Shown: positions 12,329 through 35,468, counted from the stretch's first letter. The stretch is DNA of 64,000 nucleotides from Ignavibacteriota bacterium (GCA_963727825.1 CAVSHO010000009.1:512001-576000); one strand, 5' to 3'. The notes: a model not told the origin generated them from the letters alone. Numbers and translations are program-made.

Positions 12329-15136
12329 TTAATTCCTCACGACTCCAAAAATCGGGTAGCCTATGCTGAAATATAAGACAAAAGGCCCAAAGCTCACCGG
12401 ATGATGCAACAAATCAGTTCGGAGATAGAAACTTCGACCCAAAGAAAAATCAGCAGGGCCAATCGGCGTATCTAACCCGAGAGTAATGCCAATGCCATGC
12501 TTAAAATCTTCTAAGCGCATTTCTTCTGTTTTTAACCACACCGCCCCCAAATCGTAGCGCGCTTTAAAGTAGGTATCGAAAAAGATCGAAAATGGAAGCT
12601 TGTACTGGTATTCCAAACTCGCTACCATTAACTGCCTGCCGCGCGCATTGTCTTCACGAAATCCAAAGAAATTTTCCTGCCCGCCAAGCGAGAACTCTTC
12701 GCTGATAGGCAGGGTCTCATCCGCAACACCAATCATAAACTTTGGATGAAGAGTAAGATTCTCGACGATGGTTTGATATCTTTCATATGAGAAAAACATT
12801 TTTGTAAATCCCACAGCATTTACCAATTTTATTAATGCCGATTCGTATGAAAAATTAATAACGATGCCATCTGTAGGGAATGGCAATTTATCTTGGGTAT
12901 CTATATTAGTTCCAAATCGGATAGATGAAATGTTGTATTCTTGATTTGCAAAAGGTTGATTGTCAACTTCAAACGCCTGATTGTAAATGTCATACACCCT
13001 GTGATGTTCTAATTTTCCTTCAATCGTAACACTTCCTAACCGTTCGAGTTGTGTTCCAAAGCTCGCTGAGCCGCCTTCACGCACCTCCCGATATTCTCCA
13101 ACTATTTCCCGTTCAAACAAATATGGATCGCTTGACGGCACATCATCATAAACATTCACATCTCGGCTGAGAGAATACACTTTAAGACCAAATGTCAAAT
13201 AGGAATTAAAGATTCGGGTCGCTTTCAATTCTCCAAGATAGGTCTGGTTATTAGTGCCTCCGCCAATTAGCAAGCCGAGTTCGGCGCCAGCCCCGAATAA
13301 ATTTTCATTCCGAATATCAATCGATGGTTGGATATTGCGTTCATTATCTATTCGCAAACCGAAGCGAATCAATTCCGTACTTCGCTCTCGCGCTTTGATA
13401 GTAGCTATATTGAGTTTTCCAGTGCTGTCTTCATAATGAGTAGTAACAAGTATCTGCTCAAAAAGACTGGTGCCATAGAGATTTGAGATTCCAGCGGCAA
13501 CTTTAGAAATATTGAAAAGACTCTGATTTTTAAACGGCAGTTCCCGCCAAATAATCCAATCGCGAGACTTCTTTGTGCCGACAATATCAATACGATATAT
13601 TGTACCTTCGTCAAGTGTTACCGTCGCTGTAGCGGATAAAGAATCGAGTTGTATATCAGTTACATGGGCAAGGGAATAGCCTGCAGTGCGGTAAATTGCG
13701 AGCAACCGTTCAATAGCTCGCTCTATCAACTGCGTGTTTATATATTTGCCGAGCAGTGGTTGAAACACAGTAAGCAGTGTGTCGGAACTAAAAACCTGAT
13801 TACCCAAGATTTTTACGTTATGAAGAATTGGATTATGTACGCTGCGGATTTTAATTATTGTAGAGTCGGCGTACTGTTCTACAATTCCATCCATAGAAGC
13901 GTACTCACCTCTGCTGTACAAATCGTTCATGAAACAGTGTAAGTCCATTTCTGTTATCCAACCGCGCGTCTCGTACATTTGAAGACTATCTTGAAATGCC
14001 GGCGGCAATGAGTCTGAGCAAGAAAACCGAGGCGACTTGTACCGCACGGTACTATCTGCGCGATACAACTTGAGAGTGCGATCATCTATAAGTTTCTTCA
14101 AAGCGGGAATTATTTTTTCGGCAGAAAATTCTCCAGCAGTAATCAACGAATCGGTACCGGTAAAATCAGAAGCCAGATGATCACCTAATCTCGGTGTAAT
14201 AACAATATCTGCTTTGGCTCGTGCAAGCTTATTTGCTTCTTGCATCATAATCGTTGTAATCTGATCTGCAACTTCCCAAGGCGCATTGAGTTTGCCCTTT
14301 GGCCTTAGCGAACTTGCCATATCAACAGCAATAATAATATCTGCTTTTTCCGCAATGGCAACATCTACTGGAAGATTATCTACTAAGCCTCCGTCAAGAA
14401 GCTGCATAGAATCGCGCGGCACACTGCTGAATATCAATGGTACTGACATGCTGGCACGCAATGCTTCCGTCATATCACCGCGATCTATCACGATCCTTTT
14501 TCCTGTGACAAGATCTGTGGTAACAGCACGGAATGGAATACGAAGATCGTCAAAACTAGGATTGGGATGGTAAAGTCCCTGCAGTGTAAGGAGGTTGAGA
14601 TAATTTGATAATCGTCGTCCTGTAGAAAACGCTTGTGGAATAACTGGCTCCAGACCTTCAAATCGCAAAACAAGAACGCTTTTATCGCGCGCAATTTTTT
14701 GATCAAGAAAGAGATCGCGGCGTTTCGATTCGTCACTATAACTTAGAAGATCGTCCCAATTTGTCGTATCTACTAAACGTTGAAGTTGATCGGTTGAATA
14801 TCCCATCGCGTATAAACCGCCTATTACACTGCCTATACTCGTGCCGACAATCAGATCGGCAGGGATATTGTTGTGTTCTAAAACTCGAATTACACCAATA
14901 GCTGCGATGCCGCGTGCGCCGCCGCCGCTAAGCACTAGTGCAATGCGCGGCCGCCGTACCAATTGGATAGGATTCAATTTAGGATATCGTGATTTAACTT
15001 CACGAATATCCGGCTTGATAAGGGTTATGCGAGTCTGCGGCGAGGTAATGTCTTGCGCGCGCGCCAATAATGGCACAACAGCGAACAAAATTATGATTAT
15101 TCTAGATATTTTTTGACGCACAGAGATAGGTACCAA
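12329..15136 (-). CDS. Patatin-like phospholipase fused to POTRA domains and an Omp85/BamA-type barrel
   Basis: Signal peptide; LSGGGARG, GTSIG, DGG; POTRA-like middle region; FSLGG..FFGF and LDTPIGP barrel motifs. Confidence 0.88.
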   Translation of the reverse strand: MVPISVRQKISRIIIILFAVVPLLARAQDITSPQTRITLIKPDIREVKSRYPKLNPIQLVRRPRIALVLSGGGARGIAAIGVIRVLEHNNIPADLIVGTSIGSVIGGLYAMGYSTDQLQRLVDTTNWDDLLSYSDESKRRDLFLDQKIARDKSVLVLRFEGLEPVIPQAFSTGRRLSNYLNLLTLQGLYHPNPSFDDLRIPFRAVTTDLVTGKRIVIDRGDMTEALRASMSVPLIFSSVPRDSMQLLDGGLVDNLPVDVAIAEKADIIIAVDMASSLRPKGKLNAPWEVADQITTIMMQEANKLARAKADIVITPRLGDHLASDFTGTDSLITAGEFSAEKIIPALKKLIDDRTLKLYRADSTVRYKSPRFSCSDSLPPAFQDSLQMYETRGWITEMDLHCFMNDLYSRGEYASMDGIVEQYADSTIIKIRSVHNPILHNVKILGNQVFSSDTLLTVFQPLLGKYINTQLIERAIERLLAIYRTAGYSLAHVTDIQLDSLSATATVTLDEGTIYRIDIVGTKKSRDWIIWRELPFKNQSLFNISKVAAGISNLYGTSLFEQILVTTHYEDSTGKLNIATIKARERSTELIRFGLRIDNERNIQPSIDIRNENLFGAGAELGLLIGGGTNNQTYLGELKATRIFNSYLTFGLKVYSLSRDVNVYDDVPSSDPYLFEREIVGEYREVREGGSASFGTQLERLGSVTIEGKLEHHRVYDIYNQAFEVDNQPFANQEYNISSIRFGTNIDTQDKLPFPTDGIVINFSYESALIKLVNAVGFTKMFFSYERYQTIVENLTLHPKFMIGVADETLPISEEFSLGGQENFFGFREDNARGRQLMVASLEYQYKLPFSIFFDTYFKARYDLGAVWLKTEEMRLEDFKHGIGITLGLDTPIGPADFSLGRSFYLRTDLLHHPVSFGPFVLYFSIGYPIFGVVRN

Positions 15137-15268
15137 ATATTTTTCTATAAAAGAGTACCAAAAAATACGTCGAATTGCAACGGCACTTTGTATGAAAAGT
15201 AGAAGGATGAAGGATTAGTGAGCAGGCGTGAAACAATCTCAGAGGGAGAATACTTAGGTTTTCTTACT

Positions 15269-15469
15269 TTACATTGCTCTATGTCCCTGAAGTACTCTGG
15301 TTGGCAGCATTATTAAAGCTTTAAGAAAAGCGAATAATCCGTTTACAGTTATACCGATTAATCGGAATGGCAAAGTTAGAAGCCAAACGAATGGATACAA
15401 CACCAACGCAATCAGTGCTAATGGCCAGCAAAAAATAAATAATATAATCCAGATTAGAAATGTAAACAT
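15269..15469 (-). CDS. Small membrane protein
   Basis: 66-aa hydrophobic ORF with GGAGGG RBS upstream. Confidence 0.65.
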   Translation of the reverse strand: MFTFLIWIILFIFCWPLALIALVLYPFVWLLTLPFRLIGITVNGLFAFLKALIMLPTRVLQGHRAM

Positions 15470-15697
15470 TGTATCCCTCCGTATCTTCCTATTTCTTTAC
15501 GATGATAAGCACTATTAAGTTGCGTCTGGTAAATCTTTTTCCATTACGGACAATTTAGCATTGTCCAATATATGCGTATTCATGAGGAGATAGAATTTAT
15601 CTTAGGTAATTTACGGACATCTGATTGTTAATGGATGAAACAATTTCCTTGTTGTGTATTGCTCAGGTAGAAGAACTCTATTAATAATTAAGAGTGT

Positions 15698-16036
15698 TTA
15701 GCTGCTTAGGTAGGTAATAGAAGTTTTTCCTGCTTGCGGCGAAGAAGGTATTTTAACCATTGTGGATTTTTCAGTTGTCAGCTGAAATACGTTAGCCGAT
15801 TTCACTTCTTTTGAATCCACGACAACTAGGATATTTCCAGTCCCTCTTAGGTTCATGGTAAGAGAATTTACCTCTTCTTTTCTGATGATGATATTTGATT
15901 TCCTTATTTCGAGGGAAATCGAAGGGATGACGGTTGCTGTGACAGTTGCTGTTGCTCTAATCTGTGCATGTACTTTTTGTGGCGTTGCTCCAAGAATTAT
16001 TATAACTACACTTACTATAATTATGATCGTTCTCAT
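15698..16036 (-). CDS. Small secreted protein with pilin-donor-strand-like N-terminus
   Basis: Signal peptide ending VHA, then QIRATATVTATVI; lies just downstream of the usher-like gene. Confidence 0.6.
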   Translation of the reverse strand: MRTIIIIVSVVIIILGATPQKVHAQIRATATVTATVIPSISLEIRKSNIIIRKEEVNSLTMNLRGTGNILVVVDSKEVKSANVFQLTTEKSTMVKIPSSPQAGKTSITYLSS

Positions 16037-16048
16037 ATTGCACAAAAA

Positions 16049-16064
16049 TGCGAGAACGATGCCA
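16049..16064 (-). promoter_or_regulatory. Candidate sigma54 (-24/-12) promoter
   Basis: Minus strand TGGCATCGTTCTCGCA has GG-N10-GC spacing, but would give a near-leaderless transcript. Confidence 0.3.
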
Positions 16065-16192
16065 AAAAATTATTTTACATATCTAAAATGCCTTATCCTT
16101 AACAGTATATATATCAAAGAATTACAGCGGGCTGAAAATCACCAGAAATGATTTTGCCAACAACTCATTGGTAATTTCTACAATAGCACAAT

Positions 16193-19100
16193 CTACTTAT
16201 TCGTGTGGAATCTGCGGAGGATAGCGAGGACTTCCTCTGCGTTTGAAAAGACTCCAATACGCACTGCGTATTTCGATTTTCCATTTGCAACAATTTCCTC
16301 CACCATCGTCTTGATTTCCAAATCTTGTTTGAACTTCCTTGCTTCAATTCGTGCACGCTGCTCTGTATCCCAAGAAGAGATATGAATTTTAAAGCCTTTC
16401 TGTTTTTCATACGTGCAGATTCCAATACGCACTGCATATTTTAATTTTCCTTTTACAACAACTTTCTCAACCATGGGTTTGATTTTCAAATTTTGTTCGA
16501 ACTTCTTTGCTTCGTCGCGCGCACGTTGCTCTGTACCCCAGGAAGAAATTTGAATTTCAAAACATTCTGGTTTTTCTTGTGTTACAATTTTCTGTTGAGG
16601 TACAATTTCGTGTTTTTGTTCAGGTGCGGTAATGGTAACGATGCGCTGTGGCTTGACGGTGTCTCTTTGTACCTGAACAGCTTTCTCTGATGGACGTTTC
16701 TTTAAGACGAAATTCATCCCCTCGACATAGTCTCCATTCGCCGTAATCTTCACTTCGAATGAGCGAATTGGAGGATCACAAGAAGCACCTAAAATGCTTA
16801 GTTGCGTTGAATCTACATAGGCAATATATTTACCCGGAGGAATACCCATTTCGTAGAAAGAGCCATCTGAAAATACGCGAATGTCTTTGTGATATTTCTC
16901 GTTGATTAACTTAATGTGGATTTCAATGCCCGGAACGGCTTCCTGCTTAGTGCCAATCTGCATTAATATCGAGCCCTCTAGCACACCTGTTGCATAAAAA
17001 GGAACATCGATCGGCTTGTAAATATTCGGTTCTGAGATCGCAGAGAAGGCATACGCTTTCGGCATCCAGAGCGGATTTGAGATCGATGATCCAACGATAT
17101 CAATATTATAGCGCGTGTAGGGCAACAACCGGCGTACCCGTGTTATGCCTGAGTCTCCAAAATCAATAACTGCCGCCTGTTCCAAGTTAAAGGCTACATC
17201 ATCAATTGTTTGCTCCCCAGGATCAAAAACTCCATTGCCATTTTTGTCAACGAACATGTGCATTGTGAGAGCAGATAGTCCGACTGATGCCAGGTTATGA
17301 TATTGGAAGGTCTTCTCTTGGCTGTCATACCCGACGGTTCCACTCACATTTTGTATGATAGTTGCATCATCGGCGTCTAAAGATGCGGTTGTCGTTGAGC
17401 GTGCAAACGGAAATTCATATACGAATTGTAAACTTGCCAGGTATTGATTTTGAACGAAGTTACGTGATGTACGAAAATTGTACCCTTCCCGATGAAGTGA
17501 CATTGCTGGAGAGATCAAGCCGTAATTCGGCAGCTTTTTTTTGTTCAAGATTGTATGTGAAAGAAGAACCGACCAGTATGTTCGTCATTAAAGAGAGTAG
17601 CTTCCTGTTTGGGCTGAGCGAATATAGAATCGATGAAGAGAGAATCGGTTCACGTGTTGTAGGTGTGAAATCTGATGTTGATTCCGAATAGCTGTACGCT
17701 ACTGTTCCATTGATCTGATTATACGATGCAGTCGCCCCTGTTGTCATTAATGTTGTCGCACTGTGTACATAATTTTGTCGATTAGCTAAAAACTGATACG
17801 TGATAAGCGCTGAAGAGAGCTTCAACGGAAGAGACATCGTCGTCTGTGCCTCCGTTAGGATGTGCGATGGATTGTAGTATTCATTTTCTTCATGCCTTGT
17901 GATAGAAAGTTCTACCGAAGCTTGCGAAGCGTACACCGCGCTCAGATCTGCGCGATACAATGCTCCCGGAGCGGCATCAATGGTAAAAATATAATTCTTA
18001 TCCAACCACGAAGAAAGCGAAAGAGAACTAATGGGTTTTGCAGAGAGCGTATCGTCAATATATTCTATACCGGCTGTCGCGGTTAGCCAGGAAGTGAGTC
18101 CTGCCATCACTGATGCTTGTGCGAAATGATCATTGTTTGCACGCAATTCCCCTGCGTTTATAGTATAATTGACTTCGCCCTCAGGAATAAATGAAAACGG
18201 AATTTGTATTCGTTGCCGGTCTTCGACCACTTCACCTGTCGGCCCATAGATACGCAAACTATAATATGTAGTCCCATAAGTTAACGGAACAGCGAAACGA
18301 TAATTGCCCAATTCATCCGCCTTGGTGAACACCGACAAGCCTTTCGTTGAGATAAAGTTCCACCGTCCATTGCGGAAATGTTTTTTGCTCGATCACGTAT
18401 GACTGAAACATTGTTCGTGTCTGCACTGGTTCATTCGATACCTGAATTCCTTTGAAACTACGTAAGAAAATGCCCGATGTATTTTCATAACCTGTGTTGA
18501 CATTTGTAATGAAAGGATTATCATCGATCACATACTTCCATTGCCCTTCCATGGTCCCCGATGACGGCAAGGAAGTAGAATAACCGCCGTTTGCAGTTAA
18601 TTCTAAATCGCCGCCTGCAACAATTCCCCCGCCTTGCAGATTATAGCCAAAACTTTTGTAATTTTTTGACGTTGATGCCGATAAAGAATAATCGAGGAAT
18701 CCGCCATTGAAGAGATCTTTTTCCCGGGGGTACAGAAGTGGATACTCTGCTTTTGTAGAGTTCTGCCTTTCGATTATACTTTGCTGCAGCTCCCGATTTC
18801 TCTCGGCAATAATTGGCAGTTCTTCGTCCGTTTCCAGCCATAATGATAAATGTGCCATATCTACAACGAAACGAAGTCCAAACAGACGCTCTAACACACT
18901 TGGCGTCACATAAATATCAAATGTGGAACTTATGAATTCATCAGGCCGAAGGATGAACGTTACTGTGTCTACGCTCGCCTTTCCTGTACGAAAATTGATT
19001 TCGTATTTGCGTGATTCTGTGATATAAAAACCATTCATGCTGTCTAACATTTTGTTGAATTTGTAGTTAATCTTCAAGAGACGAAAAATCTCACTCATTG

Positions 19101-19272
19101 GTAAATACGTAGTAGGTTCAACGTAGATAGCTGTGACAACCGTATTTACTAATCCTAACGAATAACTAAAGTTTAAATAGACTTCTTGAGATAGGGAGTC
19201 ACTAGATGCGTGAGATTGTGCGCAGAGTGGCTGCGCAAAAAAGAAAATGAGAGTTATTATGAATAACGGCAT
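16193..19272 (-). CDS. Usher-like outer-membrane pilus assembly protein with C-terminal Ig-like and tandem SPOR-like domains (split by two 1-bp frameshifts)
   Basis: Three track ORFs join if one extra base is removed near 18331 (LVG-FTKADELGNY) and near 17468 (QFSY-SRNFVQ). Signal peptide MPLFIITLIFFFAQPLCA; GGFLDYSL; TVELYLNERL..VPLTYG..LRIYGPTGE plug-like segment; FVDKNGNGVFDPGE. Confidence 0.72.
16253..16562 (-). repeat. Intragenic tandem duplication (168-bp period) encoding two SPOR-like units
   Basis: FEIQISSWGTEQRARDEAKKF..KYAVRIG versus FKIHISSWDTEQRARIEARKF..KYAVRIG; tccaatacgcactgc occurs at 16253 and 16421. Confidence 0.85.
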
Positions 19273-19451
19273 TATCTGATTGCGCTTTTCATAAGTGGTC
19301 GAACGCTGGGAATCAGCGACCATCACACGGTGACAAAGCGCAATGTGGCTTGACATCGAACGATAATGGTTTGCTGCGATGGCATAACGCGTTCTTTGTG
19401 GTAGGTAATCATAAAAACTTTCTATGATCTCTGCGGCTAATCGCCTTTCGC

Positions 19452-20270
19452 TCACTTTATCGTGAATGCAAACCTATTAACAATGGGTGACAATTGTATG
19501 AAGTTCTCAGACGCGATGTCGTTTCTTTCTGTGACAAACTTTATTTCCGCCGTATATTTTCCCGGCTTTAGCGTGTTTCGATCGAATGTTGCTTTTTTAT
19601 TCATCGTTACATAGATACTAAGTGTCTCAATGGTTTCATCAACGACATTTCCGATTTCATCGAAGACCTTAACATTTGCAGTTCCGAAATAAGGTGTATT
19701 TCCTTTTTTCACTGTCTTCCAGATAAGCCGCACGCTTGCAGAATCCTCCACGATATACGGATCTGCGATTTCGAGGCTCATATTGAGCGCTCCTTTGGTA
19801 TAAAGAACTGTAGTAACCTGCTCGAATACAAAGTTAAGCTGTGTTGTGATTCCTGTGCGCACCGTGTCGATGCGCTTTGTTTGCGGTTGAGCGCTGGTGA
19901 CGATACGGGACCAATACATTCCATCCGATAAATTTCCCGGAGGCTGTGCATTTAGCCGAACAATTTGTTGAGAACCCGAGGGGAGAACAAATTTACGAGG
20001 AAATCCTTTGATCCAGCCAGCCAGAGAGTGCTGAGCCTCTGCAATAGTGTCGTTATATTGCATCGACATATTACCGATGGAATCCGATACAGGATAACCG
20101 AAAATGAACTTAATCGAGACTTCCTGTGTCTCGGCGGTTTTGTTTTCAACTGTAAATGTACCAAAGCGATTAGTTGAATTTATAAACAATGCCGGCGGCG
20201 AAACAGAAACTTGCGCTCGTGCGTTAGCCATGAACAGTGCGAGCAGGAGATAAAAATAAAATGTGCGCAT
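19452..20270 (-). CDS. Periplasmic fimbrial chaperone (PapD-like)
   Basis: Signal peptide; VSVSPPALFI, FTVEN, WIKGFPRKFVLPSGSQQIVRL, YWSRI, GNTPY motifs. Confidence 0.75.
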   Translation of the reverse strand: MRTFYFYLLLALFMANARAQVSVSPPALFINSTNRFGTFTVENKTAETQEVSIKFIFGYPVSDSIGNMSMQYNDTIAEAQHSLAGWIKGFPRKFVLPSGSQQIVRLNAQPPGNLSDGMYWSRIVTSAQPQTKRIDTVRTGITTQLNFVFEQVTTVLYTKGALNMSLEIADPYIVEDSASVRLIWKTVKKGNTPYFGTANVKVFDEIGNVVDETIETLSIYVTMNKKATFDRNTLKPGKYTAEIKFVTERNDIASENFIQLSPIVNRFAFTIK

Positions 20271-20272
20271 AA

Positions 20273-20740
20273 TTAATTCTTTGGAATTGTGTGAACAGTG
20301 AGTGTTATACTGCCGGAATATTTACAGGCGCGCTGTGATTTGGAAGGATGTAGGGCGCCGCCGATCCAAATATAGACGGTCTGATTTTGTTTCAGTGGCA
20401 ATACCAATGGTTGCCGCGGATCGAACGATGTGCGGGAAGACACGTTATCTATTATGGACCATCCGGCGCTTCTTTCATTGAAACTTACAGGAATTTTCTC
20501 CGGTCCATCCGTGTTGGTGAAAAAGCTGGGAAGCATTATGGTAATAGTTGCATTTGTTTCAATTTTCGATTGAATTTGAAATTTCGCCGCTCCGACATCT
20601 GATTGATCAAGACGTTTTTCCCTTCCACCGAAATCCGTTCCGAACGAAATATCGTTTAACTTGACGACTATCAGGTCAGGCTGACAATAAAGCACTGCAC
20701 TTTGAAGCATTAAGAGAAATATAATGCAAAATGGTTTCAC
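20273..20740 (-). CDS. DUF4402-like pilus subunit lacking the N-terminal extension (possible tip subunit)
   Basis: Signal peptide; NDISFG; C-terminal VYIWIGGAL..Q...YSGSITLTV shared with the two neighbouring subunits. Confidence 0.68.
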   Translation of the reverse strand: MKPFCIIFLLMLQSAVLYCQPDLIVVKLNDISFGTDFGGREKRLDQSDVGAAKFQIQSKIETNATITIMLPSFFTNTDGPEKIPVSFNERSAGWSIIDNVSSRTSFDPRQPLVLPLKQNQTVYIWIGGALHPSKSQRACKYSGSITLTVHTIPKN

Positions 20741-21228
20741 AGCTGTACTACCACAATTTGTATAATTCCAGTATAACTTCCGGCTACCTGATTATTTGAC
20801 GTCGTTACTCTTCCGCCTGCCCATATATAAAGATTTCCATCAGCGCCGGTAGCCGCCGATCCGCCTGTTGTATGTTTAAATTGCGTTGCCGATGCCGCAT
20901 CCGGAATTGTGTTGTAAATAGGAGATATCGTATAAAAATTCATTGTGTTGCTTCCGCAAATCAATTCATTCGGGAAAGTTATGGTGACCTGCACATTTGT
21001 ATTAACATCACCATTGAATAAAAACTCTGCTGCATGTGCATCTGTCGGTAGGACTGTCGTGTTCATTCCTACGATCAAATTGCCAAAGTCAAGATCGGCA
21101 AGCTTTGTAATAGTAGCAAATCCTAATACCGAAAATGTGCCCATTGCTGTTGCCGATGCTGTCACCTGAGCAATGCTCATACTGCCGAAAAGAGAAATGA
21201 ACAACATTGTTTGTTTAATGTATTTCAT
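20737..21228 (-). CDS. DUF4402-like minor pilus subunit
   Basis: Signal peptide; ADLDFG; C-terminal LYIWAGGRV..QVAGSYTGIIQIVV. Confidence 0.72.
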   Translation of the reverse strand: MKYIKQTMLFISLFGSMSIAQVTASATAMGTFSVLGFATITKLADLDFGNLIVGMNTTVLPTDAHAAEFLFNGDVNTNVQVTITFPNELICGSNTMNFYTISPIYNTIPDAASATQFKHTTGGSAATGADGNLYIWAGGRVTTSNNQVAGSYTGIIQIVVVQL

Positions 21229-21281
21229 TATGACAATAAGGTATAAAAAGGATGTATGATTATCAACGAATGTACAAAACG

Positions 21282-21310
21282 AAGGGGCTACCGTTTTCCG
21301 GTAACCCCTT
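21282..21310 (-). terminator. Hairpin (terminator or mRNA-stabilising) after the major subunit gene
   Basis: Minus-strand AAGGGGTTACCG-GAAAA-CGGTAGCCCCTT followed by CGTTTTG. The single mismatch is a G-U pair only on the minus strand. Confidence 0.7.
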
Positions 21311-21337
21311 GCGAAAACTTACACTAATCTGATATCA

Positions 21338-21823
21338 TTATGGTTGTGTAACTGCAACTGTAATTTGACCAGTATACTGCCCTGCTACCTGTGCTGGATC
21401 TGCTGTAACTCCACCACCAGCATATATCCACAATTGACCTGCTCCGGTTGTGGTTGCTGCCCCGCCGGTCAACCCAGCTAATGCAGTAGATGTTGCAGGG
21501 TTCGCTACAGTATTTGTTCGCGGGATTTGCCCGGTGAACGTCATTGTGTTTGTGAGATAAGATAGTGTTGCAGGAAATGTAACCGTTATTGTTGATGAGG
21601 CATTTGCCGCTCCTGTGAACAGGAATGAAGCAGCATTAGCTACGTTTGATGCCCAGAATACTGTCTGCCCTTGAGTTGCAGTAAGGGCTGCCAAGTCAGT
21701 AAGTTTTCCCAATGTTAATGCTACATTAACATTGGCTGTTATATTTGCGTTCTGTGATACTTGCGCAAATGACACAACAGAAACAACCAACAATAAAACG
21801 ACGACTACGAGAAGCTTTTTCAT
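21338..21823 (-). CDS. DUF4402-like major pilus subunit
   Basis: Signal peptide; Ala/Thr/Gly/Val-rich mature chain; C-terminal LWIYAGGGV..QVAGQYTGQITVAV; first gene of the cluster and followed by a hairpin. Confidence 0.72.
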   Translation of the reverse strand: MKKLLVVVVLLLVVSVVSFAQVSQNANITANVNVALTLGKLTDLAALTATQGQTVFWASNVANAASFLFTGAANASSTITVTFPATLSYLTNTMTFTGQIPRTNTVANPATSTALAGLTGGAATTTGAGQLWIYAGGGVTADPAQVAGQYTGQITVAVTQP

Positions 21824-22249
21824 AAATTACCCTTTATATTGTATTAATGAATATGTGGTTTTACTAATTTACCCAATGAATTAATATAAAATACACTCTT
21901 ACTACTGGCAATAGGTATTTTCACTTATTCGCCATAGGTGTTTCCACCTATATAGAATTTATAACAAACTCAAGCAAAATTATCATTTTTCCCAATAACT
22001 ATCAAAAATGCTTATGATATACTTTCTTCCTGTTGGGATTAGAACATGGTATGCGGCACATAAGTTCCTACTATTTCTTGTCTCAGCAGTTTGAACAAAC
22101 AGTTAAAGAAAAATACCGTTGCTTAAATTTTGCAACAACCTAATTATACTTTTAACAAATAACTCACAAATATACATCCAATGGTAAGATGAATTTACTC
22201 TTCATCGAGCCAGCGATTTCATCTCATTTCTCGCATTTTCTTTTTTAAT

Positions 22250-22439
22250 TAGAACCTATCTCAAAAACAATAACGTAGTCAGTCTGAGTGAGCGCCTATG
22301 GCGCCGTCGCTTTCAGCGCCATCTCCGACATGGCGTAAAGCGCCACTTGTCGAATATTGACTATGTCCTGATTATTCACCCTTCGACGAGCTCAGGGGGA
22401 CATTTTTTATAGAATATTCTATTTTTGAGATGGCTTCTA
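22250..22439. mobile_element. MITE-like element with terminal inverted repeats and REP-like internal cargo
   Basis: TAGAACCTATCTCAAAAA (22250-22267) and TTTTTGAGATGGCTTCTA (22422-22439) are 16/18 inverted matches. No ORF inside; internal ttgtcgaa...cttcgacgagctcag pattern. Confidence 0.6.
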
Positions 22440-22529
22440 GTAACAATATACCTGTGGTTTGCTTGAGCAGGCAAAAAACATTATATTTTTCGCAGTCAAT
22501 TACTCATTATCAAAGAGCGCTAAGCTATC

Positions 22530-23340
22530 GTGGCAAAAATTATTGTCGTAGCAAATCAAAAAGGAGGCGTTGGCAAAACTACTACCGCTATTAATTTAGC
22601 AGCTTCATTGGCTGCAGCGGAGAAGCGGGTTCTGTTGGTTGATAATGATCCGCAGGCAAATGCCACAAGCGGTGTTGGCTCCGCCGGTATTGATGGAAAA
22701 ACAATTTACGAGGTGCTCATTGGAGGAGCAGAAGCGGCAGAAGTAATCCAACCGACACAAATGCCTTACTTATCCGTTCTTCCATCGCATATCAATCTTG
22801 TCGGTGCTGAAATTGAAATGGTAGAGATGGAAAATCGAGAACACCTGCTCACGAACGCACTTCTGCCGGTGCGCGAGCGCTTCGACTTTGTAGTTGTAGA
22901 TTGTCCGCCTTCACTTGGCTTGTTGACTTTAAATGCTTTGACGGCAGCGGATTCTGTTCTCATTCCCGTTCAGTGCGAATACTTTGCACTTGAAGGACTC
23001 GGTCAGCTTTTCAGTACTATCAATATGGTTAAGAAGACATTGAATCCCAAACTAGACATCGAAGGCGTATTGCTGACAATGTTCGATTCGCGCCTTCGGC
23101 TCTCAAACCAAATTGTTGAAGAAGTGAAACGTTACTTCGGCGATAAAGTTTTCGCCACGATTGTTTCACGCAATATCCGATTAAGCGAAGCGCCAAGTTT
23201 CGGCAAACCGATTATTCTTTACGATGCCATCTGCACCGGCACGACGAAATTATATGGAACTTGCAAAAGAAGTATTAAAGAACAACAAGTTCTTTGCCGT
23301 CGAACCTCTGTTAAATGAAAATACTTTCATCGGACCATAA
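22530..23340 (+). CDS. parA: Chromosome partitioning ATPase ParA/Soj (1-bp frameshift near 23248)
   Basis: [31 protein letters not shown]. Removing one A at 23247-23249 restores the normal ..[10 protein letters not shown].. ending, with TAA at 23340. Confidence 0.92.
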
Positions 23341-33023: not shown

Positions 33024-35468
33024 TCACGAAGAAACGCTTTTTACTTTGATAACAACAATCGTCATATCGTCGTGCTGTTTGGTTTTGCCAACAAATGACT
33101 TTATTTCAGCAAAAACACCTTCCATAATCTCCGCGGCCGTACCTGATGCAAGCTTTTCCACTACTCGTGAGAGCCGCTCTTCTCCAAATTGCTCTTGATG
33201 AGCATTCATCGCTTCTGTAAATCCATCCGTATAAAATATGAAGAGGTCGCCCTGTTGATACTCGATCGTTGCCTCTCCAATCGATTGAGAAAACTTTGAA
33301 TCCCCATCAAGTCCAAGAGCAATACCGGTAGGATTCAAGATCTGCACATATTCTGTCGTGCGATTTCCGCATGATGACCGGATTGTGCCCTGCGCGAGCA
33401 AAACTCAGCGTTTTCTTCATCGTATCAAACACGCCATAAATCATACTTATAAATATTCCACGTTCAACATTTTCATAAAAGAGATGATTCACTTGAGTGA
33501 GAACTTTCGCCGGCGATTCCGATACATGTGCTAATGCACGCAAAAATCCTTTTGTTAATGTCATGAAAAATGCGGCCTGTGTACCTTTTCCCGATACATC
33601 TCCTATTGCAACAGCAAGCTTGTGTTCGCCTATTTCTATGAAATCATAGTAATCACCGCCAACCTCCTGCGCCGGCAAGCAGCGCGAACAAATATCGAAT
33701 TGCGGAATTGACGGATTGCTTTTTGGCAGGAAACTCATTTGAACTTTTCGGGCAATTTCCAGTTCTTGTTGAAGCCGCTGCCGCTCAGTGATGTGTTTTG
33801 CAAACGCCGGTGCAATCGCATCAAAATCATAGATGATACTTTTTCTGAAACAGAGAATAAGAGATGTGGCATATATGAGAGAACTGATAATGACAATAAA
33901 TAATCCGCTTTCTGTATACGAGGGATTGCCTGCACAGAAAAGACCTGCCGCTTCCGGTGTCGCTGTAGAGACAATCAGTGCAAGAAGAGCAGTCAATCCA
34001 TCATATTGATAGAATATCCACACCATAAAAAAGGCATAGACCGTCTGAATTATCAATGCGGCTCCAATAGGTTCCATGTGTTCAAGGCTGATAACCGCCA
34101 ATACTAGAGCTGAAAGCGTTATGAGAAGTGCTCTTGAAGAAATATATTTTCGCAGAAAAGAAATCAAGAAGAGCAATATGAATGCAAATACAAAGCATGA
34201 AATATAAATGGCATGTGAGAGAATCAGTAACCAAGGGGCGACTGCATCGAATGTGTGTATGGATGAATCGTCTATTAATGAAATTGAAACTGGAGTTATT
34301 CTGTTTCCCACCCACGTCAACAGTAAGGATAGAGCAAAGAGTCCTATGCCGAACGATATTCCTCGGATAAAACTCCAGCCAATATTCGGGTGCAATACAT
34401 GTCCTTGAGAGATTAGATCGAAGGGAATCATCTTTTCTCGCCAAACTTCACGTGTCATAGATTCAGCAATTGCCCAGAGTAATACAAGAGTACCGCCAAT
34501 TAATATCGGTACCAGCAACATCGGAAAGATAATTTCCCACGCGCTACTGTTGTTTTGGACATTGACATACAATTGAATCCCAAAGGCGACAGCAACAATA
34601 CTTCCCATCAAAAGCGCTTGCCGAAAACCCATTTCAAATGAACGTATACGTTTTATTGCAACAATCGCAATAAGTATTCCTCCGCCAATTATCAAAATGA
34701 TAAAGATAATCCCATAAATTGAATCAGAATTTGACCACTTATATTTCTCCGGCACAGCAATATCCGGCTCGTAGGATGTAAAAATATTTCCCGATACCTT
34801 CACTTTCACAGTTACGGGATCACCCAAAATGACCGATGGCAAACGCCAGGTGTATTCATAATCAATACGGTGTAACTGCTGGGTCACTTTTTCCGATACG
34901 GATTGTGAAGTATCGACCTTAAAAATTGACGACGAATAGGTCTTGAGAAATATCACTGCGAATCGCTTTGCTTCATAAGGCGAGAGACTGGGAAGCTGCA
35001 GTGTATCAGAAATATTTCTCGCGTACTCAAGCAGCCTTCCTTTCGTATCAAAGGTTAGCGTTATATCTCCGCGGATGAGATTTTCTACTTTCTCAACTTG
35101 TTCATTTTTTGTTTTCTCTTCATTCCCAAAACTAAACTGGAGATTATTATCTTTACGCCAGCGAATTTTCCATTTATAGACCGGAATGCTATCCCTGAAG
35201 AGAGAATTTGCCTCCGAAATACCAACCATTTTTTGTGCTTGTCTCATCAATGGACGATTCGCTATAAGAGATATTTCAGGCCAAAGGCCGTCACTCGTCA
35301 GTTTGAGGCTGTCCATCACACTGCGAGTTCTTTCTAAAATGAGCAGACCGATCCAGCGGAAGTGAAATACCACCATACGGATGCGATAGGGGGAAAAGGG
35401 TGATGATAATGAATAACGCTAACAGGGATTAATAACAAGAACGGCAAAAGTTGTTTTGATTTTTCCAT
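33024..35468 (-). CDS. Membrane-bound PP2C/SpoIIE phosphatase with extracytoplasmic domain (three 1-bp frameshifts)
   Basis: ATG at 35468 (MEKSKQLLPFLLLIP..). Frames join near 35420, 35341 and 33349. Many TMs; EVGGDYYD, GDVSGKG, YTDGFTEA, QHDDMT. Confidence 0.82.

Follow-up and report, generated by a model that had tools for sequence, protein, structure and literature searches.

A 64,000-nt stretch of DNA from an Ignavibacteriota bacterium (GCA_963727825.1 CAVSHO010000009.1:512001-576000; hereafter the window) was analyzed for a six-gene cluster on its minus strand (15698-21823). Open reading frame (ORF) calling resolved this cluster into three small subunit genes, a candidate periplasmic chaperone gene, an usher gene read in three frames, and a small secreted ORF. 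An initial annotation had described it as an atypical chaperone-usher (CU) pilus locus with DUF4402 subunits in an Ignavibacteria-like host. The cluster and its coordinates, which approximate the borders of a conserved cassette, were borne out, and the nearest public records (titled Ignavibacteriae, Ignavibacteriales and Bacteroidota bacterium) agree with an Ignavibacteria-like host, here a soil bacterium. CU pili are textbook adhesion organelles that have been studied almost only in Proteobacteria. As detailed below, the locus is very likely a CU-type fibre-assembly operon from a branch of these systems that is deeply diverged, widespread, unannotated and apparently unstudied. All six products start with a signal peptide followed by a glutamine (e.g. 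..FA|QV, ..IA|QV, ..YC|QP, ..RA|QV, ..CA|QS, ..HA|QI), and the presence of this residue after every signal peptide fits the 'Q-rule' for Bacteroidetes signal peptidase I substrates (PMC5837995).

The chaperone-like ORF encodes a secreted protein of 272 aa (19452-20270, minus strand). Its AlphaFold2 model (mean pLDDT 88) has two beta-sandwich domains in the manner of pilus chaperones, with a low-confidence loop at residues ~130–148 that is followed by a strand at 149–159. A Foldseek search of the model against the PDB returned CU chaperones at E values of 3.4e-10 to 1e-7, headed by CfaA (3.4e-10), EcpB (7.4e-10) and CsuC (8e-9) and continuing with PapD, FimC, Caf1M and SafB. Structural alignments with VIA-align placed CU chaperones at Z 12.6–14.7 over both domains (YadV, Z 14.7 with rmsd 3.5 over 187 residues; FimC, 13.8; PapD, 13.6; CsuC, 13.2). 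In the model, the chaperone fold is a PapD-like two-domain Ig fold. The family is large, its profile matching 3360 cluster representatives at E≤1e-3 and 2087 at E≤1e-10 (of 1.84 billion), and among 54 close homologs none is named and none carries a precomputed Pfam domain. Of 36 family members sampled from the best 150, six matched PapD_N at E 3e-4 to 4e-3, all below the 23-bit cut-off, and 30 had no PapD match; a paralogous chaperone matched PapD_N at E 0.004. A Por_Secre_tail match in the chaperone itself (E 0.0076, 17 bits vs 27) was taken as a chance likeness of Ig-like sandwiches.

The usher gene follows directly (16193-19356, minus strand). The single usher-like ORF of ~1000 aa that had been annotated is not present; the region is instead read in three frames, with pieces at 19356-18313 (open frame 19455-18313), 18338-17460 and 17548-16193 that read through to 1053 aa. 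Intact orthologs in two congeneric genomes (G009, 915 aa; G001, 954 aa with one masked residue) are 72–84% identical to the three pieces, and a structural model was built on the 84%-identical G009 ortholog from a 25-sequence alignment (pLDDT 81.9). Secondary structure assignment by DSSP gave an N-terminal beta domain (56–175), a helix (181–200), six long strands (216–307), six short strands (316–385), eighteen long strands (395–677) and beta sandwiches (722–886). With strands counted from the DSSP list and not from coordinates, the model reads as a 24-strand barrel with a plug-like sandwich inserted after strand 6 and C-terminal periplasmic domains, an arrangement that we take to be the PapC/FimD plan. 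Foldseek ranks 1–19 for this model were all FimD/PapC (E 1.7e-28 to 7e-10, with up to 920 aligned columns), and the next, unrelated match had an E value of 3.8e-08. VIA-align gave Z 21.1–24.9 to 15 usher entries over model residues 210–886, compared with 16.7 for the best non-usher barrel; the barrel-plus-plug constructs 3ohn and 2vqi scored Z 23.0 and 22.8 (rmsd 4.1 and 4.3). The proposed usher-like fold, checked as a plug-containing beta-barrel on the ortholog model, was therefore recovered. None of 38 usher homologs carries a precomputed PF00577 (Usher) domain, their names being 'SPOR domain-containing protein' or 'hypothetical'. A paralogous usher matched Pfam Usher at E 9e-4 (18.7 bits), and the best score in the genome was 19.4 bits.

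Related loci were gathered using the chaperone profile (n=24, two of which are the G009 and G001 contigs used to build the hidden Markov models (HMMs)). At least one subunit-like ORF lies directly upstream of the chaperone gene in all 24, and an usher-like ORF directly downstream in 23; the exception, L035, has only 1.7 kb left downstream, with no usher match. The titles of these records name Ignavibacteriae, Ignavibacteriales, Ignavibacteriaceae, Melioribacteraceae, Bacteroidota, Balneolales, Balneolaceae, Rhodothermales, Gemmatimonadota families and Cloacimonadota, so the subunit-chaperone-usher order noted initially is kept across several phyla. In the genome that contains the window (G000), chaperone and usher genes number three each and DUF4402 matches eight, with no canonical Usher match and no match to SCPU (PF05229). 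Its two paralogous loci are on contig C11 and have intact ushers, one of 1085 aa with a TPR tail (L023, 170000-184000) and one of 1094 aa with a SPOR tail (L024, 56000-75500). Both loci have as neighbour a giant gene whose product carries a sorting domain for type IX secretion (1170 aa and 2928 aa).

Within the phylum, the chaperone was detected at E≤1e-10 in 75 of 301 sampled genomes (G000 included), with 45 of 49 positive in one family, and the middle usher piece was matched in 14 of 41 genomes of relatives (again including G000). PF05229 was found in none of the 301 genomes, but its positive control also matched nowhere. A literature search, with subscription journals outside its scope, found no paper on DUF4402, none on chaperone-usher systems in connection with Ignavibacteria, none on such a system in a Gemmatimonad, and none describing an usher with a SPOR domain. 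One survey left the CU pathway out (PMC4793230). The initial suggestion of an uncharacterised pilus class is compatible with this search; with 3360 cluster representatives in the chaperone family, the class is neither rare nor peculiar to this host.

The usher ends in two tandem SPOR-like repeats (16196-16561, minus strand) that are predicted to bind peptidoglycan. PF05036 (SPOR) matched residues 383–448 of usher piece 3 (E 8.2e-9, 36.1 bits vs a cut-off of 21), and a shorter first repeat was read from the translation ahead of this match. The G001 ortholog has one SPOR copy and the G009 ortholog none, and PF05036 is precomputed on 17 of the 38 usher homologs. SPOR domains recognise denuded septal glycan, and a speculative consequence is that the fibre would be built where the cell divides.

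Upstream of the chaperone gene are three secreted paralogs of about 160 aa, as annotated initially, all on the minus strand and each with a signal peptide: subunit 1 (161 aa, 21338-21823), which is the first gene of the cluster, subunit 2 (163 aa, 20737-21228) and subunit 3 (155 aa, 20273-20740). The C-terminal motif by which they had been grouped, [LV]xIxxGGx7Qx4Y[TS]GxIxxxV, has three matches in a six-frame translation of the window, one per paralog, and none in 50 codon-shuffled windows. A C-terminal G-x-Y-[TS]-G strand is likewise read from the sequences. PF14352 (DUF4402) was the sole Pfam family for all three (subunit 1, E 1e-3, 20.1 bits; subunit 2, E 1.1e-6, 29.8 bits; subunit 3, E 1.3e-4, 23.0 bits), with subunit 2 alone above the gathering threshold of 25.2 bits and subunits 1 and 3 below it. 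Subunits 1 and 3 align with DUF4402 members in the alignment of paralogs and orthologs. The DUF4402 assignment is also reflected in the nearest ESM Atlas clusters of subunit 2, which are DUF4402 (score 0.97), and in the homologs of subunit 1, 16 of 45 of which have a precomputed PF14352 domain and some of which are named 'DUF4402 domain-containing protein' or 'spore coat protein U-like'. No subunit matched SCPU PF05229 in the Pfam scan at E≤0.1. With all subunits at 155–163 aa, no two-domain adhesin is recognisable among them, as had been remarked.

The subunits differ at their N-termini. In an alignment of the three paralogs, their orthologs and the subunits of the two paralogous loci, subunits 1 and 2 have an extra alternating-hydrophobic strand between the signal peptide and a D-L-x-F-G motif, and subunit 3 has a gap in its place; in subunit 1 this strand of alternating hydrophobic residues follows ..FA|Q. 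Lacking an N-terminal extension of ~14 residues, subunit 3 has 10 residues from the mature glutamine to its D-I-S-F-G motif, compared with 24–25 in most other subunits of the 24 loci. The chaperone-adjacent subunit is clearly of this short form in 14 of the 24 (13 by script, with 8–11 residues, and L030 by eye), of a divergent short form in three (L041, L042 and L045) and of the long form at L029, L031, L043, L044 and L046; in this count several rows were read by eye from the N-termini, and L047, which is cut by a contig end, and L049 were left unclassed. In CU pili (Fim, Pap, Csu), the tip is occupied by the subunit that lacks a donor strand, which enters the fibre before the others. Because its N-terminal extension is missing, we infer that subunit 3 is a candidate tip or initiator subunit; subunit 2, which has the extension, is a candidate minor or adaptor subunit. 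At one related locus (L048, 4984-5961; record titled uncultured Bacteroidetes bacterium), the extension-less chaperone-adjacent subunit is 325 aa long and may be a two-domain tip adhesin of this system.

Gene 1 is the most divergent of the cassette, with 62% amino acid identity to its G009 ortholog and a dS of 2.1, compared with 0.24–0.64 for the other genes. DNA similarity to the orthologs stops inside this gene, at ~21618. Replacement of alleles, or diversifying selection on the major subunit, may explain the divergence of gene 1. A terminator-like hairpin with a 12-bp stem and a T-rich tail (21282-21310, minus strand) lies in the gap between the first and second subunit genes; it is kept in G009, G001 and a third related locus, L028 (65% identity), where the stem sequence differs. 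RNAalifold recovered 14 pairs, three of them with compensatory two-sided changes, from four sequences only. The hairpin is likely an attenuator that raises the ratio of the major pilin to the other products. First position, a conserved hairpin and high divergence together fit a highly expressed, variable major subunit, for which subunit 1 is the candidate.

The small secreted ORF noted in the initial annotation closes the cluster (15698-16036, with a long form to 16045, minus strand). It encodes 112–115 aa with a pilin-like N-terminal strand (..HA|QIRATATVTATV..), and the ATG at 16036 is a likelier start than position 16045, as in the orthologs. The product is 73% identical to its counterparts in G009 and G001 (dN/dS 0.37), and the ORF was found in three of the 24 related loci (G009, G001 and L028). 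It has no Pfam match. Its L028 ortholog matches the subunit HMM (E 2.3e-4), an hhalign comparison with the subunit alignment gave a probability of 16% over the signal peptide and first strand only, and the ESM Atlas provided leads only (DUF4402, 0.79; SCPU, 0.78; CS1 pilin, 0.76). That this ORF is a mini-pilin terminating or anchoring the fibre is speculation.

The three frames of the usher gene result from 1-nt insertions relative to both orthologs, placed by junction alignment at 18327 (inside the plug) and 17468 (inside the barrel). Environmental sequence was available as contigs of relatives from the four best metagenome runs, all of one study (share 0.22–0.33, depth 3–4), with no contig spanning the whole 1.2 kb. 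Contigs of two runs (X1 and X4) bridge 17468, and both are without that base. An X4 contig that ends at 18328 has 13 loose letters equal to window positions 18314-18326, so that 18327 is skipped and the reading L-V-G-V-T-K-A-D is restored, as in the orthologs; 18244-18327 is covered by a loose contig end only. Similar shifts occur in two other genes of the window. The C-terminus of parA (22530-23318) goes out of frame near 23225, and its conserved ending continues in the +1 frame, which indicates a single extra base. On the minus strand at 33024-35376, a SpoIIE/PP2C phosphatase domain is split by a +1 shift over two overlapping ORFs (Pfam model positions 2–97 and 95–192). The four shifts noted in the window share the +1 type, and the assembly seems to carry insertion errors here at ~1 per 16 kb. 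The usher pieces are otherwise open over their whole match to the orthologs, and their dN/dS values (0.23, 0.16 and 0.26 for pieces 1–3, compared with 0.21 for the chaperone) show no decay. A genome-wide heuristic based on frameshift direction was uninformative (392 vs 482), and in three relatives, only paralogs of ~40% identity, and no ortholog, were retrieved for the split SpoIIE gene.

Because the relatives and the contigs are without the insertions, shifts of the same kind recur in parA and the SpoIIE gene, and dN/dS shows no decay, the usher frameshifts are probably assembly errors rather than the mark of a true pseudogene. The alternative is that the insertions are real and the CU operon is dead in this organism, with a very recent usher pseudogene and no fibre made from the cassette. 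Two of the at least four shifts seen in 64 kb do fall in one 3.2-kb gene, neither insertion is in a long homopolymer, and the two intact paralogous ushers on contig C11 would make a loss tolerable. We nevertheless regard a dead operon as unlikely in view of the shared +1 type of the four shifts (parA included), pieces that are each open over the full ortholog match apart from the two shifts, dN/dS values of 0.16–0.26 like those of intact neighbours, and near-identical environmental contigs without both bases.

Among known systems, the archaic (sigma) CU pili, such as Csu of Acinetobacter baumannii and CupE of Pseudomonas aeruginosa, are alike in having several small pilin paralogs with one chaperone and one usher. 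CsuC is among the matches of the chaperone model (Foldseek 8e-9, Z 13.2), and the only whole-domain PDB alignment of the subunit profile was to CsuA/B, at a non-significant E of 0.8–1.1. The two differ in several respects, however. Csu has SCPU pilins, whereas the subunits described here match DUF4402 and none matches PF05229 at E≤0.1; Csu has a two-domain tip adhesin (CsuE-like) after the usher, where the present locus has only the 115-aa ORF; and the usher here has SPOR repeats, with an extension-less pilin gene placed before the chaperone gene. Archaic CU systems have been described as the class found across a wide range of phyla (PMC9452303). Our data suggest that the locus would work like a CU pilus, and we have not filed it as a member of the Csu/sigma class because its sequences do not qualify it for the Usher, PapD or SCPU families.

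The closest structural matches of the usher model are FimD and PapC, of the Escherichia coli type 1 and P pili, over the barrel, the plug and both C-terminal domains, and the chaperone model aligns with FimC and PapD over both domains (Z 13.3–13.8). Against these systems, sequence identity is 12–16%, the proteins fall short of the Pfam thresholds for Usher, PapD_N and PapD_C, the pilins show no sequence relationship, and the usher has an extra SPOR tail and an unmatched N-terminal domain; the host also lies outside Proteobacteria. For the alternative CU pili (CFA/I with CfaA/CfaB/CfaC/CfaE, CS1, CooA), CfaA was the top Foldseek match of the chaperone model (3.4e-10), and CooA was the top PDB row of the subunit profile, aligned over the C-terminal G-x-Y-x-G strand at a non-significant E of 0.068. 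No significant sequence relation to this group was found, and the cluster has no CfaE-like two-domain adhesin. A relation to the type V (FimA/Mfa) pili of Bacteroidia was discarded, as no such family was detected in Pfam at E≤0.1; these pili use lipoprotein pilins and are not known to need a chaperone or usher.

Based on these comparisons, a working model of the locus can be proposed. All six products would be exported by Sec and cut before the glutamine. In the periplasm, the PapD-like chaperone would capture the DUF4402 subunits, whose pilin-type fold is presumed, presumably by lending a strand from its long flexible F1-G1-like loop region. The usher, with its predicted 24-strand barrel, plug and periplasmic C-terminal sandwiches, would then link the subunits into a polymer, each incoming one supplying its ~14-residue N-terminal extension for strand exchange. 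Extension-less subunit 3 would enter first and sit at the tip; subunit 1, as the first and most variable gene and the one followed by the conserved attenuator hairpin, would be the bulk subunit; and subunit 2 would serve as an adaptor or in a minor role. A capping or anchoring function is possible for the product of the small downstream ORF, and the SPOR repeats of the usher tail would tie the pore to peptidoglycan.

The machinery could also be CU-like and yet produce a surface coat, sheet or very short polymer and not a hair-like pilus. There is precedent in the spore coat of Myxococcus, for which protein U is exported through a CU-like system. Some subunit relatives are indeed named 'spore coat protein U-like', the cluster has no adhesin-like two-domain subunit, and a wall-tethered (SPOR) usher suits a cell-hugging structure as well as it does a pilus. 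These points are opposed by the failure of all three subunits to match SCPU PF05229 at E≤0.1, and by the combination of extension-bearing and extension-less subunits with an attenuator after gene 1, which is the logic of an ordered linear fibre. A coat thus appears quite improbable.

A number of results weigh against the assignment of the locus to a CU fibre-assembly system. None of its components reaches the curated sequence threshold of any CU family. The 272-aa chaperone has no Pfam PapD_N (PF00345) or PapD_C match and no useful NCBIfam match, and no PDB sequence was significant in searches with the protein alone or as a 28-sequence profile (A3). Usher piece 2 matched Pfam Usher PF00577 at E 0.018 (14.3 bits vs a threshold of 27.1), and neither the usher ortholog sequence nor the family profile (A4) found an usher in the PDB at a significant E. 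Likewise, the subunit profile (A5) found no significant pilin in the PDB (best rows CooA, E 0.068, and CsuA/B, E 0.8–1.1), and profile A6 found no chaperone, usher or pilin there at a significant E. The fold evidence consists of predicted models from 25–28 sequences, and structural alignments of the usher begin at residues 200–219, so that the N-terminal domain (model 56–175) is uncovered. The chaperone ties with the Enterococcus WxL-interacting protein (WxLIP; Z 15.3, rmsd 6.5), which means that fold alone is no proof of pilus function; given this tie, a pilus function is argued from genomic context. The cluster has no two-domain adhesin, and no fibre has ever been seen. Lastly, the usher is out of frame twice in the assembly, and of the three contigs that lack the insertions, all of depth 3–4 and from a single study, the two that bridge 17468 are only ~95% identical to the window.

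The WxLIP tie, the absence of a significant sequence link to any CU family, and the interleaving of the paralogous loci with type IX secretion cargo genes could be taken to mean likeness at the level of fold only, i.e. a WxLIP-like wall or surface binding protein, a plugged transporter for non-pilins and monomeric secreted Ig-like DUF4402 proteins, a reading that is highly improbable given that the usher match spans the barrel, plug and both C-terminal domains at 4–8 Z units above all other barrels, that 23 of 24 loci, from several phyla, keep the three gene types together, and that sub-threshold PapD_N and Usher matches surface in 6/36 sampled chaperones and in one paralogous usher. A CU-type fibre-assembly operon remains the interpretation that we favour.

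The genomic setting of the operon was also characterized. DNA similarity to the orthologous cassettes of the two congeneric genomes (G009 and G001; loci L021 and L022) extends from 15659 to ~21618 and then ends, and none of six proteins flanking the G009 locus was matched anywhere in the 64-kb window. The six genes therefore act as one unit, a cassette set in other surroundings here than in the two congeneric genomes; it may have been relocated or gained independently. Upstream, an intergenic region of 706 bp (21824-22529) separates it from the divergent parA. The AT-rich leader of ~430 bp reported in the initial annotation corresponds to the proximal part of this region, which presumably contains the promoter and leader (GC 0.295 in 21800-22199 vs ~0.40–0.46 in genes); the gap as a whole is longer, and its distal part is not AT-rich. 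Sigma-70-like sites were not in excess in the intergenic region (22 vs 20.6 in shuffles), an Rfam scan of 15000-22700 returned one sub-threshold chance match only and no family for the intergenic region, and the sequences upstream of the G009 and G001 cassettes have no DNA similarity to it. A GC-rich island at 22270-22400, inside the otherwise AT-rich intergenic region, also has no Rfam family, and as a candidate structured element it was dropped, its fold being only slightly better than that of shuffles (z -2.1). Downstream of the cassette is a doubtful gene, a very hydrophobic ORF of 66 aa (15269-15469, minus strand) with no Pfam match, followed by a gene outside the cassette (12329-15136, minus strand) for a 935-aa protein that combines a patatin-like phospholipase, POTRA and an Omp85 barrel and that is presumably similar to the PlpD-type (type Vd) secreted lipases.

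The DUF4402 system might, as a tentative and still doubtful proposal, be a separate ancient CU class, at home in the FCB group and Gemmatimonadota, that follows its own rules. These could include a pore attached to or positioned by the cell wall by way of exchangeable periplasmic usher tails (SPOR in this locus and one paralogous locus, TPR in the second paralog), an extension-less single-domain starter pilin that replaces the two-domain adhesin, and a lineage-specific mini-pilin, encoded after the usher, for fibre termination or anchoring. In its biology the system varies a textbook theme, to which the present locus contributes a conserved hairpin that is likely an attenuator, an extension-less pilin, a downstream mini-pilin candidate and a warning of probable frameshift errors in the assembly. 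Standard annotation leaves this large family as 'hypothetical', 'DUF4402' or 'SPOR domain-containing protein'. If fibres were confirmed, many soil and sediment Ignavibacteria, Balneolales and Gemmatimonadota would gain a predicted adhesion or biofilm organelle, DUF4402 would gain a function, and the wall-tethered usher would be a new design to study.

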